Positions 9,814 to 13,561 of a stretch of 14,707 bases of DNA are shown here, piece by piece. Position 1 is the stretch's first letter. Every line of letters begins with the position of its first letter. The stretch covers positions 1-14,707 of the forward strand of contig DATFEP010000027.1 in the NCBI GenBank assembly GCA_035250975.1, written 5' to 3'. The notes beneath the pieces were generated by a model. The model ran no database searches and was not told the DNA's origin. It saw nothing but the letters and a program-made list of their open reading frames with translations. This stretch comes from Nitrososphaeraceae archaeon. GTDB taxonomy: Archaea > Thermoproteota > Nitrososphaeria > Nitrososphaerales > Nitrososphaeraceae. Made by a program: the position numbers and the translations under genes.

Positions 9814-10455
9814 CTATGAATTTGAATACCAAGGTGCCTCAGTTTTTATATCAGAAGAAGCAGTAGCGTTTTTAGCGGAAATTGCTTTATTTGTGCAACC
9901 CTCTGATAACGTATCTCCTTCCTCGATATTAAAATCTATTAATTGGTCTTCATTGTCGCATACAAAATGATCTCCTCCTTTGTCTCCCTGAAGAATATCA
10001 GCACCTTTACCCCCCTCCAATGTATCATTTCCTGATCCACCAACTAATGTGTCGTTACCTTGGTAACCTTTAAGAACATCATCACCTTTGCCTCCTTCAA
10101 GCAAATCATCACCTTTTCCCGCTTTCAACTTGTCATTACCGTCATTTCCGTACAGTTCATCATTCCCTAAACCGCTATCCAAAAGGTCATTACCTTTATC
10201 CCCATCGATTTCATCATTTCCTTCGCTTCCCTTGATCTTATCATTTATTTTTGTACCCTCTATTGATAAATCGAAGTCTCCCTTTCCGGATGAATATTTT
10301 ATTTTTTCTTCTTCTTCCGCTTCTGGATCTACTTCCTGCTGCTGTTGTGCATTAGTAACACCAAATTTCTGATTAGAAAAGAGTGTTAATAGTAGTATTA
10401 CTGTAAATATCACAATTTTTATATAAAACGTTGATTTAAGCGGACGTTCAGCCAT
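9814..10455 (-). CDS. secreted hemolysin-type (RTX) calcium-binding repeat protein
   Basis: N-terminal signal peptide ending TNA|Q, about 11 consecutive GGxGxDxLx-type nonapeptides, then a C..D.LIDF...EGD....C cap. Confidence 0.9.
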   Translation of the reverse strand: MAERPLKSTFYIKIVIFTVILLLTLFSNQKFGVTNAQQQQEVDPEAEEEEKIKYSSGKGDFDLSIEGTKINDKIKGSEGNDEIDGDKGNDLLDSGLGNDELYGNDGNDKLKAGKGDDLLEGGKGDDVLKGYQGNDTLVGGSGNDTLEGGKGADILQGDKGGDHFVCDNEDQLIDFNIEEGDTLSEGCTNKAISAKNATASSDIKTEAPWYSNS

Positions 10456-10779: not shown

Positions 10780-11940
10780 ATGAAAGTATTTGAAATGATT
10801 TTTTCACGTATCCCATTTTCTTTATTTTTAGCTAGAATTTTATATACAATAAATTGGTTTAATATTTCGTCGATATTTTATTTTATATCTCAAGATTTTA
10901 ATCTTGATATTTCCTCTTTAGGGTTAATAACTACCAGTTTTATCATAGGAGTCGGTATCTTTCAGGTACCTGCAGGAATACTGGTTGCAAAATTCGGTGC
11001 CAGTAAAGTAGGTGTTTTTGGTATCTTGTTCTCTTCATCCATGGTAGTAATTTCTGGTCTTTTACAAGATATTACACAAATTGCATTTCTTAGATTTTTG
11101 GTGGGTGCTGGCATGGCATGTTTTTTTGGACCAAGTGTTACTTTGATATCTCGATTTTTAGGGGAAAAAAATACTGGATTGGGGATTGGTATTCTTAACT
11201 CAGCACATGCGATAGGTGCACTGTTAGGAATTTTTGGCTGGATAGGATTAACTGAGATCTTTGGCTGGCGCTGGTCCATTATATTTGGAGGAGTAGGCGG
11301 AATAATAATTGCCATTTTCATGGAACTTTATTTAATTAGCGACTTTAGATTGAGAGTTAAAGTTGAAATAAATGAAATAAAAAAAGTACTATTAAACAGA
11401 TCATTAATCACTCTTGGAATTTCATTACTGGGGTTTCAAACAGGTGCAGCCTTGACTCTGACTTTTATGGTTATTTATTTGATAGAAAAAATAAATGTGG
11501 AGCCAGTTCTTGCAGGCTTTTTTGGAAGTCTGAGTTTGATAACAGGGATAGTAGTCTCACCCCTATTTGGAAGGATGTACGACAAGATTAAAGATACAAA
11601 GAAACTTTTGTTCTTTTCAGCAGTCATTTGTGCCTGTAGTATAATGCTTTTGTATATTGATTCAATTTATATCGTCATTTTTTCAATTCTGGTCTCTGGT
11701 ATTTTTCTATCAATGGGATTTGTTGTAATCTACGCAAAAGCAAAACAGGATTACGGTATAAAAGCGCAATATCAGACTCTATCTGTCTGTTTTGTTAACG
11801 GCATTTCGCTATCAGCATCATTTTGGATTCCAGTAATGTTTTCGTATGCTGTAACAGAATATGGATATAACCTGGCCTGGTTTCTTGCAGGAATCGTGAT
11901 AATTTTATTATCTTTGCCTTTGTTAAAACTGAAGACGTAA
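10780..11940 (+). CDS. MFS transporter
   Basis: 386 aa with about 12 hydrophobic segments. Motif-A-like loops are present (AGILVAKFGASK, FGRMYDKIKDTKK), as is LRFLVGAG in TM4. Confidence 0.92.
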   Translation: MKVFEMIFSRIPFSLFLARILYTINWFNISSIFYFISQDFNLDISSLGLITTSFIIGVGIFQVPAGILVAKFGASKVGVFGILFSSSMVVISGLLQDITQIAFLRFLVGAGMACFFGPSVTLISRFLGEKNTGLGIGILNSAHAIGALLGIFGWIGLTEIFGWRWSIIFGGVGGIIIAIFMELYLISDFRLRVKVEINEIKKVLLNRSLITLGISLLGFQTGAALTLTFMVIYLIEKINVEPVLAGFFGSLSLITGIVVSPLFGRMYDKIKDTKKLLFFSAVICACSIMLLYIDSIYIVIFSILVSGIFLSMGFVVIYAKAKQDYGIKAQYQTLSVCFVNGISLSASFWIPVMFSYAVTEYGYNLAWFLAGIVIILLSLPLLKLKT

Positions 11941-11947
11941 CGATCTC

Positions 11948-11977
11948 CTTTCTTCTTCTTTTCTTTACTTTTTTTTG
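11948..11977 (+). terminator. pyrimidine/oligo-T terminator of the MFS gene
   Basis: TTTCTTCTTCTTTTCTTTACTTTTTTTTT follows the stop codon closely. Confidence 0.55.
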
Positions 11978-12037
11978 CTATGGCTATTGATCTTGTTTAA
12001 AACAAGTAATTAGATATACCAGATTTATTTATTTTTT

Positions 12038-12104
12038 GGGTCAGTTCGTCGCGAGTACTTCATAGCTTGTAACTCAGACTGGAGCAGCATATCACTTCAT
12101 TCCC
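12038..12104 (-). ncRNA. archaeal C/D-box 2'-O-methylation guide sRNA
   Basis: Minus strand reads GGG-A-[AUGAAGU C]-GAUAUGCUGCUCCAGU-[CUGA D']-GUUACAAGCU-[AUGAAGU C']-ACUCGCGACGAA-[CUGA D]-CCC. It is 67 nt, has a GGG/CCC terminal stem and a 3-nt bulge before the tandem GA (K-turn geometry), and forms a GC-rich island in AT-rich intergenic DNA. Confidence 0.85.
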
Positions 12105-12124
12105 ATTATGAGCTTATATTTTCT

Positions 12125-12135
12125 TTTTTAAATAT
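12125..12135 (-). promoter_or_regulatory. TATA-box candidate for the C/D sRNA
   Basis: Minus strand reads ATATTTAAAAA. The TTTAAAAA core lies 21-28 nt upstream of the predicted sRNA 5' end at 12104. Confidence 0.5.
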
Positions 12136-12301
12136 GTATTGTATTGTTTCAAATAATAATAATCGCTGAAAAGTGGTCTTGTAATTAACTATTCAAATGT
12201 CACATTCTGTTATCTATTTGTACCTTTTGGATTGGTATTTAATAGATTACATTACTAATTTAATTTTTGAATGATTAAGTTAATCTCAATCACTGCAGTT
12301 A

Positions 12302-13561
12302 TCAGTTTATATTATTTTTTTCCAATATATCCAGGCTACTTACAGGTGGGTGGATCTCTCTAACGCTCAAATTTTTGAAATCCACATCATCTGCAAAATC
12401 CCATCTGAACGTTGCAATTGGACCTCCCCATGTAATAATTTGATCCTTGTCTCCGTCACATTTTTTACCTGATTTACCCCAATTCCCAGTGTCAGTATAT
12501 TCGTCTACTTTTATCCAATTCCCATCATTTCTGGGATCCAGCCAGCTCTCCATTTTTACCACTGTTTGAGAGGGGTCTTCTGGGTTTTCAATGTTATATG
12601 TTATAAACTTGTAACCTATCCACTTATCTTTGATAGGTCCATCTGCTTTCTTGATGTCGCTGAAAACATAGCTAACATGCCACTGTTCTTTTGAAAATTT
12701 TGTATCTCCAGAAAAATAAATACTTCCTTTGTATCCAACTCCTTCACAAGGATTTGAGTCACTATGGTGACCCCCTCGATTGTACCAAGTAAATTTTCCT
12801 TCATCAGGGGGAATAGTATAATGATTCAATTTTATGTATCCAGTTATTTCAACATTTTTCCAGTCTGTTCTAGATCCCATATAACCTTTTTCTGCTAGTT
12901 GTGCATGATCAAAAGTTTCTATCCTTTCAGGACGATATCCCTCGGAAGTAAAGACATCCATTCTTACCTTGGCTTCAGAATTTTTCGATTTTAGTTTCCA
13001 AGATCCATCTTTATTTTGAGAAATTTCAAGGTTTGGATCGGTTTGTTCTGTATTCAAATTGAATGGACTAAAACGAGAGTCCTCAAGTGGATTGACCATG
13101 TTTAGAAACCATTCTTGACCATTTGTGGTCGTAGGATAGATGTACTTTATTCCAAATCTATCGTACATGTTGTTATCTAGTTTGTTTAAATTATCGGGTA
13201 CATTTTCACTTTTAAAACTGTCGCTATCCTTTGATTTTTTCTTCTCTTTATCTTTCTTGCTTTTCTTATCTTTTTCGTTTTCATCATCATCGTCATCATC
13301 CTTTGATTTTTCATCGTCATTTTTATCATCATCTTTATCATCGTTTTCATCATCATCATCGTCATCATCGTCGTTGTCAGATTTCTTTGCAAATGCATAA
13401 TAGCTACCATCCAAATCGATAATTGGAATTAAGAGAATTAACAATACTAAAGGGATCGCGAATACAGGAATAATTTTAAAAAGGGGTCTCAACAAGATCA
13501 ATATATAGAAAAATTTACCAGATTTTAATTTTTTATCATAATGTTCTGTAATTTTCTCCAT
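12302..13561 (-). CDS. secreted or membrane-anchored conserved hypothetical protein with D/K-rich linker (possibly carbohydrate-active)
   Basis: Long hydrophobic N-terminus ending YAFA, about 60 aa of D/E/K low complexity, then a Trp/Gly-rich globular domain (DRFGIKYIYPT..GQEWF, WKNVEITGY, RGGHH..CEG..YKG, KEQWH, ITWGGPIATFRWD, FKNLSVREI). Confidence 0.82.
   Translation of the reverse strand: MEKITEHYDKKLKSGKFFYILILLRPLFKIIPVFAIPLVLLILLIPIIDLDGSYYAFAKKSDNDDDDDDDDENDDKDDDKNDDEKSKDDDDDDENEKDKKSKKDKEKKKSKDSDSFKSENVPDNLNKLDNNMYDRFGIKYIYPTTTNGQEWFLNMVNPLEDSRFSPFNLNTEQTDPNLEISQNKDGSWKLKSKNSEAKVRMDVFTSEGYRPERIETFDHAQLAEKGYMGSRTDWKNVEITGYIKLNHYTIPPDEGKFTWYNRGGHHSDSNPCEGVGYKGSIYFSGDTKFSKEQWHVSYVFSDIKKADGPIKDKWIGYKFITYNIENPEDPSQTVVKMESWLDPRNDGNWIKVDEYTDTGNWGKSGKKCDGDKDQIITWGGPIATFRWDFADDVDFKNLSVREIHPPVSSLDILEKNNIN
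13215..13385 (-). repeat. low-complexity GAT/GAC/AAA codon tract encoding poly-Asp then Lys-rich linker
   Basis: CATCATCATCGTCATCATC-type units on the plus strand, translating to KKSDNDDDDDDDDENDDKDDDKNDDEKSKDDDDDDENEKDKKSKKDKEKKKSK. Confidence 0.85.

Follow-up and report, generated by a model that had tools for sequence, protein, structure and literature searches.

What is encoded on the minus strand between positions 12104 and 12038 of a 14,707-nucleotide (nt) stretch from a Nitrososphaeraceae archaeon (GCA_035250975.1, contig DATFEP010000027.1, 1..14,707; hereafter the window), and on which nucleotides of the ribosome would its product act? An original prediction, made from the letters of this stretch, proposed that these 67 nt are a box C/D small RNA (sRNA) whose guide next to box D′ selects G2251 (E. 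coli numbering here and below) in the P-loop of 23S ribosomal RNA (rRNA); it gave no reading of the second guide, next to box D. Our analysis of anatomy, conservation and complementarity indicates that this interval is, with near certainty, a real box C/D sRNA gene. Its D′ guide very probably directs 2′-O-methylation of G2251, and its D guide would probably, at moderate confidence, direct that of U2460 in helix 89.

Read 5′ to 3′, the sRNA has the order GGG-A-AUGAAGU-GAUAUGCUGCUCCAGU-CUGA-GUUACAAGCU-AUGAAGU-ACUCGCGACGAA-CUGA-CCC, with a spacer of 16 nt between boxes C and D′, a linker of 10 nt between D′ and C′ and a spacer of the canonical 12 nt between C′ and D (Table 1). All of the elements named in the original prediction were found in their places: the full C-D′-C′-D layout on this strand, a terminal GGG/CCC stem that directly flanks the kink-turn (K-turn), the K-turn spacing itself (a 3-nt bulge, AAU, then GA on the C side; GA, then CCC on the D side) and a TATA box at the expected distance, TTTAAAAA beginning 28 nt upstream of the first G. 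The description of a 12-nt D′ guide has to be amended: its letters are present, but the guide forms only the 3′ part of a 16-nt C-to-D′ spacer. A point against the assignment is that neither box C nor box C′ agrees with the RUGAUGA consensus at position 5 or at position 7; box C retains UGA, which is essential, along with G at position 6, and box D is CUGA. An alternative box C, GUGAUAU, which lies 5 nt downstream and leaves an 11-nt spacer, was rejected because its GA is lost in most homologues (GUAAUAU). We searched the 2,488,707-base genome with a permissive regular expression for the whole layout, allowing variant boxes, spacers of 11–20 and 11–13 nt and a 3-bp terminal stem. The sRNA itself was the single site found, and three locally shuffled genomes gave 0, 0 and 0 sites.

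Table 1 Features of the sRNA gene and its surroundings in the window
Feature	Position	Strand	Remarks
MFS transporter gene	10780..11940	+	
Terminal stem, 3′ half (CCC)	12038..12040	-	pairs with GGG
Box D (CUGA)	12041..12044	-	U at 12043 is K-turn position 3n
D guide ACUCGCGACGAA	12045..12056	-	N+5 is A at 12049, predicted opposite 23S U2460 (helix 89, 5′ strand); weaker alternative U2593
Box C′ (AUGAAGU)	12057..12063	-	conserved core in 37 homologues
D′-C′ linker, 10 nt	12064..12073	-	variable; K-loop type in the window's clade
Box D′ (CUGA)	12074..12077	-	conserved in 37 homologues
D′ guide UGCUGCUCCAGU	12078..12089	-	N+5 is C at 12082, predicted opposite 23S G2251 (E. coli numbering), P-loop
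Extra spacer nucleotides, box C to D′ guide	12090..12093	-	sequence and length variable among relatives
Box C (AUGAAGU), RUGAUGA variant	12094..12100	-	GA forms sheared pairs; position 5 (12096) is K-turn position 3b
Terminal stem, 5′ half (GGG), canonical C/D K-turn stem	12102..12104	-	pairs with CCC 12040..12038
TATA-like promoter element TTTAAAAA	12125..12132	-	starts 28 nt upstream of the sRNA's first G
419-aa protein gene, acidic N-terminal region	12302..13561	-	about 200 nt upstream of the sRNA, same strand

We determined how far this element is conserved by BLAST of the 361-nt gap in which it sits (11941..12301, between the MFS transporter gene and the 419-aa gene), which gave matches in 36 of 61 genomes (60 relatives and the genome of the window). 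Outside the closest relative (G016), the main matches barely exceed query positions 197–265, corresponding to window 12105..12037, and some members of the genus add an upstream promoter block. In alignments of 30 loci and of 37 trimmed homologues, the box cores are invariant, two blocks in the spacers are conserved and the remainder is variable, including the length between box C and the first block. Conserved boxes and guides with divergent flanks had been expected, and a 67-nt conserved island in a divergent spacer is what the searches returned. A covariance model (R1) built from the 37 homologues was run on 151 genomes sampled from the order; 123 of them, among these 89 of the 103 of high quality, carry the element exactly once. 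The count includes the window's own genome and the unpublished genome G138. Sampled across the phylum, 58 of 151 genomes carry one copy; outside the order the count is 39 of 131. Twenty of these 39 outside-order homologues were retrieved, and all 20 re-scored as full-length matches, 15 of them with both guide blocks and 5 with the D′ block only.

Among the 37 homologues, columns A5, U6, G7, A8 and G10 of box C are invariant, as are C28, G30 and A31 of box D′, with U29 conserved to at least 90%, and U43, G44, A45 and G47 of box C′, where position 5 is free (A, C, G or U). The spacers were measured in 33 loci parsed by regular expression, mostly from the window's family: the C-to-D′ distance is 16–20 nt, the D′-C′ linker 8–14 nt and the C′-D spacer 12 nt in 33 of 33. 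The C-to-D′ distance is 12 nt in phylum-level homologues such as L050, and the additional bases (loci L004–L033) are found next to box C and differ in sequence between loci. As read from these homologues, the spacer of 16–20 nt is a lineage-specific expansion towards a eukaryote-like spacer. In several other families of the order (L044, L045, L094–L102), a stem-loop of up to about 50 nt takes the place of the linker and would convert the internal K-loop into a K-turn closed by a stem; many of these homologues also carry a C′-D spacer of 13 nt, by which the D site would shift one nucleotide to G2459.

The locus had also been expected to escape standard annotation, and the window has no Rfam match at gathering score. 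In E-value mode, yeast snR40 comes out first (20.7 bits, E = 0.079, gathering score 50), with a match that spans 12017..12104 on the minus strand and aligns the D′ guide and box D′; snR40 guides other sites. This match and those to snoR09 and to a CRISPR repeat model, likewise obtained in E-value mode, are far below threshold and were judged generic or due to chance. The 20 phylum-level homologues have no Rfam match at gathering score either. L061, L063 and L064 match snoPyro_CD, sR5 or sR7, weakly, and in L065 a weak sR45 match overlaps the homologue on its own strand; the best of all these weak matches reaches 34.7 bits.

Compensatory variation supports the K-turn. The three terminal-stem pairs are G-C in 28 of 29, 33 of 33 and 32 of 33 distinct homologues with letters on both sides. 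The 3b.3n pair, formed by position 5 of box C and position 2 of box D, is AU in 19, GC in 6, GU in 5, UA in 1 and another combination in 2 of 33 distinct rows, and its covariation score was reached by 0 of 500 shuffles. In the window the pair is A-U (12096 and 12043, minus strand; columns 9 and 93 of alignment A1). Across the homologues of A1, box D is CCGA only with G at position 5 of box C, and CAGA with U there; in phylum-level homologues, AUGAUG is likewise paired with CAGA and AUGAGG with CCGA. Box C/D K-turns are stated to have U:U at 3b.3n in the available text of PMC5689011, and a Watson–Crick pair at this position is reported, in that of PMC4382518, to block ion-induced folding. The Watson–Crick 3b.3n pair seen here would fit protein-dependent folding. 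The remainder of the molecule shows no comparable structure: the minimum free energy of the single-sequence fold is −9.8 kcal/mol (z = +0.92), equalled or bettered by 162 of 200 shuffles, and RNAalifold gave −2.5 kcal/mol and no covarying helix. Intramolecular structure as the cause of conservation was rejected on these two tests. The sRNA is not a stably folded molecule, and its K-turn is supported.

Which nucleotides would the two guides select? Since the genome is a metagenome-assembled genome (MAG) without a 23S rRNA, target searches used the rRNA operons of four relatives: two congeners, a third genome from the same family and a fourth from another family. With G·U pairs allowed, GCUGGGGCGGCA in the P-loop is the best site in 16S and 23S rRNA for the relative's own D′ guide in all four. 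N+5, the fifth guide base upstream of the box, falls on the second G of the G run, and alignment to rrlH of E. coli K-12 identifies this nucleotide as G2251. The P-loop sequence given in the original prediction is the one read in 23 of 23 relatives' 23S rRNAs examined, and the target 12-mer is identical in all of them. Its duplex of 11 bp with two G·U wobbles is likewise recovered, with UGCUGCUCCAGU pairing over N+2..N+12 and G·U at N+6 and N+9 (the guide of G012 is identical). The energy of the D′/P-loop duplex is −21.8 kcal/mol; best sites of shuffled guides average −16.1 kcal/mol (standard deviation 1.8), and 0 of 150 reach this value.

The variation of the D′ guide carries more weight than any single duplex. 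We compared 71 homologues (37 + 20 + 14, after removal of a spurious row, E = 0.66). Positions N+3, N+4, N+5 and N+8 are invariant. Positions N+6, N+7, N+9 and N+10, which oppose G2252, G2253, G2255 and G2256, contain only C or U in 71 of 71 homologues each, in 14 combinations. Over N+2..N+11, 64 of the 71 pair fully, and the remaining seven are each mismatched at one or more end positions. Exchange of C and U only opposite G, together with strict Watson–Crick pairing at and next to the target, is the pattern expected of a working P-loop guide. Other targets of the sRNA fared less well. A 16S site for the D′ guide, GCUGGGGGAGCA, was rejected for a central mismatch at N+8 in four of four relatives. 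No site of at least 9 bp was found for either guide in the 22 transfer RNAs (tRNAs) detected by aragorn in the window's own genome, a set that is probably incomplete, and none of at least 8 bp in its partial 16S rRNA, which breaks off at a contig end after ~750 nt.

Several observations weigh against methylation by the D′ half. In a count control on G016 (10-bp sites, G·U allowed), 1695 of 20,000 shuffled D′ guides do as well as the real one, reaching no fewer Watson–Crick pairs; for the D′ guide of G048 the same control gives 418 of 20,000. Of the two G·U pairs in the D′ duplex, at N+6 and N+9, the former directly adjoins the target pair. Spacing affects the efficiency of archaeal methylation, and the 16-nt C-D′ spacer could impair it. 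Conceivably, then, the D′ half no longer methylates, its spacer having grown to 16–20 nt in the 33 parsed loci from the 12 nt of distant homologues, and complementarity to the P-loop is kept only for chaperoning rRNA folding; archaeal guides are stated as 10–12 nt in the available text of PMC7994747. We regard this as improbable. All 71 homologues have C at both N+4 and N+5, with exchange of C and U at neighbouring pyrimidine positions, as expected if the target pair must stay Watson–Crick; insertion next to box C leaves the distance from D′ to the target as it was; and the window's own genome contains no stand-alone SpoU-type enzyme above cut-off. Methylation of G2251 through the D′ guide is, on this pairing evidence, very probable.

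For the D guide, the helix 89 stretch CUCGUCGCGGGC pairs with the relative's own guide in four of four relatives, with N+5 aligned to U2460, which sits at the 5′ base of helix 89, 3 nt away from position 2457. It is the top match in 16S and 23S rRNA in three of the four and ranks fourth by a crude score in G048, where mismatches fall at the 5′ end of the guide. On the rRNA of G016, the window's D guide forms 10 bp (N+2..N+11) with −18.7 kcal/mol, a value reached by 1 of 150 shuffles. The main competitor is a second site in domain V, which shares the core CGUCG and lies in the stretch aligned to E. coli 2591–2599, with N+5 on U2593. The sRNA could thus be genuine while its D guide acts on this site instead of, or besides, U2460.

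Weighing against U2460, the count control for the D guide in G016 is passed by 440 of 20,000 shuffled guides, and in the same genome a guide of the window's type forms 9 bp (N+3..N+11, one G·U) at the U2593 site. Many phylum-level homologues fit the U2593 site better than helix 89: a comparable D guide is present in 15 of the 20, and 9 of these 15 carry an A, facing C2463 in helix 89 or U2596 in the second site, that mismatches the former and pairs with the latter; 4 of the 15 pair fully with the second site over 10 bp. As many guides outside the order fit the second site, the D guide seems to have different targets by lineage. In addition, the C′-D spacer is 13 nt in 10 of 51 order-level homologues, in which N+5 would move to G2459. 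Within the order the balance is reversed, with full pairing to helix 89 in 44 of 51 homologues and to the U2593 site in 0 of 51. Three variant classes of guide (CCU..., GCC... and ...GACAAU) lose pairs at the U2593 site and keep those with helix 89, and one of them is matched by a change in its own rRNA: helix 89 of G044 (L070) reads CUUGUCGCGGG, with U instead of C at 2458, and its sRNA (L092) has the guide ...GACAAU, with A instead of G at N+3. As read from the two sequences, this exchange is compensatory. We consider it probable, at moderate confidence, that the D guide of the window directs methylation of U2460, and unlikely that it directs that of U2593, instead or as well. The eukaryote and archaeal modification table, in the part of PMC11542601 available, lists no methylation at the equivalent of U2460, which is a predicted rather than a known site.

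Taken across the phylum, these patterns can be arranged into a tentative history, which we put forward as a speculation. One ancient, vertically inherited, single-copy lineage of guides would have kept D′ locked on G2251 throughout, while the D guide migrated between two kinds of peptidyl-transferase-centre site with the common CGUCG core: U2593-type targets, found in many lineages, and U2460-type targets, found in ammonia oxidisers. It would have passed through G·U-tolerant intermediates that pair with both; the ammonia oxidisers would have gained the long C-D′ spacer and the Watson–Crick 3b.3n pair. If true, a guide would have been retargeted here without duplication of its gene, and the change could be traced.

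The same region of 23S rRNA showed a further peculiarity in two genomes. In G045 (L080, L091) and G200 (L088, L090), the domain V match is split, and the site CGUCGUGAG lies 1376 nt (G045) or 946 nt (G200) after the P-loop, compared to 345–346 nt in other genomes. This suggests insertions of ~1.0 kb in G045 and ~0.6 kb in G200, possibly rRNA introns, between helix 89 and helix 93.

Could box layout and rRNA complementarity nevertheless be coincidental? Matches of 10 bp that tolerate G·U are common, with a frequency of 8.5% for D′ guides and 2.2% for D guides after shuffling, and in an AT-rich genome TATA-like strings are common as well. Set against this are the uniqueness of the layout in the genome and its absence from three shuffles, single-copy conservation across the order and part of the phylum, K-turn covariation, the energy controls (0 of 150 and 1 of 150) and guide variation that is limited to pair-preserving changes. 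Together, K-turn covariation, single-copy conservation, unique layout and the D′ guide pattern effectively refute coincidence, to which we assign a negligible probability.

The genomic setting raises a different alternative, in which the element is not a guide and instead serves as a conserved 3′ untranslated region or L7Ae-binding regulatory element of the upstream gene 12302..13561, or as some other element acting at the DNA level. The element follows this gene at ~200 nt on the same strand, a homologue of the gene is adjacent in 21 of 29 relatives' loci, and L7Ae-binding K-turns are known in archaeal mRNA leaders, according to literature abstracts. Contradicting it, a TATA-like hexamer begins 26–30 nt upstream of GGG in 28 of 30 homologous loci by regular expression; the two misses (L025, L032) have A/T-rich near-matches at −29/−30 by eye. 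As the background is AT-rich, this element is supportive only. Moreover, the sRNA is single-copy in 123 of 151 genomes of the order and occurs beyond it, similarity outside the closest relative ends at the sRNA and promoter block, and two blocks of 10–12 nt are conserved in an rRNA-pairing pattern, for which a protein-binding K-turn alone is insufficient. We therefore hold a regulatory element in place of a guide RNA to be very unlikely. No open reading frame (ORF) of at least 60 aa overlaps 11941..12301. Contigs from soil metatranscriptomes (four of six RNA runs that contain small shares of the window), examined over 11500..12800, cover parts of the flanking genes and a short stretch to ~11976 past the stop of the MFS gene. 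Nothing is covered in 11984..12423, which might be held against an independently transcribed sRNA, but contigs from standard libraries cannot show a 67-nt RNA and so have no bearing either way.

In the upstream protein itself, a hydrophobic stretch near the N terminus gives way to a long run of D, E and K. All of the protein's Pfam matches are below threshold (RRN3, CDC45) and are probably driven by low complexity; it is the C-terminal ~290 aa that are conserved beside the sRNA in the 21 relatives' loci. Further along the window, a 213-aa ORF (9814..10455, minus strand) contains four RTX calcium-binding nonapeptide repeats (HemolysinCabind, E = 2e-30), in an archaeal genome.

Does the organism encode the machinery that such an sRNA would require? 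Its genome is a MAG of 91 contigs, 94.6% complete, that encodes archaeal AmoA, which identifies an ammonia-oxidising archaeon. L7Ae is encoded. Fibrillarin and Nop5 were not found in this MAG, a point against the guide reading, like the missing 23S rRNA. Fibrillarin is above cut-off in 39 of 40 relatives. In G016, the closest complete relative, fibrillarin and its neighbours make up a set of six ORFs, none of which has a tblastn match in the MAG. With the whole block missing, an assembly gap is indicated rather than specific gene loss. A SpoU-type methylase was detected in the window's own genome only as a sub-threshold match (21.6 bits; Pfam cut-off 29.7), so that, as far as an incomplete genome can show, a stand-alone route to Gm2251 is not apparent.

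A second candidate C/D sRNA was noted elsewhere in this genome, on the minus strand of contig C29 (reverse-complement coordinate 8267, ~65 nt). It has a canonical box C, AUGAUGA, a box D, CUGA, and a 4-bp terminal stem, AGGG/CCCU, and its first spacer forms 10 bp, including G·U, with three 16S sites, one of them in the conserved stretch CAGCCGCCGC. A regular-expression count of 1, compared to 0, 2 and 2 in shuffles, makes it an unproven candidate.

We propose the following mechanism for the sRNA of the window. The locus would be transcribed independently as a box C/D sRNA of ~67 nt, L7Ae would bind the terminal C/D K-turn and the internal C′/D′ K-loop, and Nop5 and fibrillarin would then assemble on it. 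Each spacer would pair with nascent 23S rRNA, and fibrillarin would 2′-O-methylate the nucleotide opposite the fifth guide base upstream of D′ or D. In this way the D′ guide would select G2251 in the P-loop of helix 80. The most likely choice of the D guide would be U2460, which is situated ~210 nt further downstream, in domain V, at the base of helix 89. Both nucleotides belong to the lining of the peptidyl-transferase centre, and the sRNA may for this reason also hold both segments together during folding. This overall reading, a guide RNA for G2251 through D′ and most likely for U2460 through D, is highly probable given its anatomy, conservation, single copy number, K-turn covariation, and complementarity in the correct register; transcription, assembly of the ribonucleoprotein (RNP) and both methylations are deduced from sequence.

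Target and mechanism are already known, and the known mechanism is unchanged by this finding. New are the occurrence of the family in ammonia-oxidising archaea, how widely it is conserved, the partner guide for helix 89, the long C-D′ spacer and the 3b.3n pair other than U:U. A search of the open-access literature found no report of C/D sRNAs for ammonia-oxidising archaea or Thaumarchaeota. Mesophilic ammonia-oxidising archaea are globally important nitrifiers, and they keep a single-copy predicted guide for G2251 that extends across the phylum. To our knowledge, Gm2251 is one of very few rRNA 2′-O-methylations common to all domains of life. The family provides (i) a covariance model that is ready for annotation and could become an Rfam family, (ii) two concrete predicted methylation sites, G2251 and U2460, both at the catalytic centre, and (iii) natural variants (spacers of 12 compared to 16–20 nt, 3b.3n types, shifted D register) that are informative on substrate measurement by the archaeal RNP.

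How does the predicted guide relate to known systems? Its target is reached by several routes. As the original prediction had it, Gm2251 is made by RlmB in bacteria and by a C/D guide in the eukaryotic cytosol, which agrees with the part of PMC11542601 at hand: RlmB acts in E. coli, and C/D snoRNPs, RNPs with small nucleolar RNAs (snoRNAs), act in yeast, human and Arabidopsis cytosolic ribosomes, on yeast 25S Gm2619, human 28S Gm4196 and Arabidopsis 25S Gm2620. RlmB, a stand-alone SPOUT methyltransferase, yields the same product by protein alone. The eukaryotic snoRNPs share with the predicted guide the target nucleotide and the N+5 rule, as far as that same source describes them. No Rfam snoRNA family matches at gathering score, and the likeness to eukaryotic snoRNAs is one of target. 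Spacers of more than 12 nt are usual in eukaryotic C/D snoRNAs.

Among archaea, Gm1950 in the 23S rRNA of Haloarcula marismortui corresponds to E. coli Gm2251 and is attributed to aFib and an sRNA (PMC11542601, available part). It resembles the present case in the nucleotide, in the RNA-guided route and in being found in an archaeon with few 2′-O-methylations; it differs in phylum, and the two are likened by target and route. With Rfam snoPyro_CD (RF00095), sR5, sR7 and sR45, the generic archaeal C/D architecture is held in common. The closest parallels were predicted by Dennis et al. (2015, PMC4644070), in whose available text G2251 (consensus G2520) is an sRNA target in three of seven archaea, the guides being sR7 of Thermoproteus tenax, sR36 of Pyrobaculum calidifontis and two sRNAs of Methanopyrus kandleri. 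These are alike with the sRNA described here in RNA class and in predicted P-loop methylation target. The phylum-level homologues have the same D′ guide core as the window and the canonical 12-nt spacer. The partner guides differ, being directed to consensus U2544, G2546, G2490 and G2564 in those sRNAs (same source) and to the predicted helix 89 site in the window. Unlike those sRNAs, the window's clade combines a C-D′ spacer of 16–20 nt with a 3b.3n pair other than U:U, in a mesophilic, ammonia-oxidising host.

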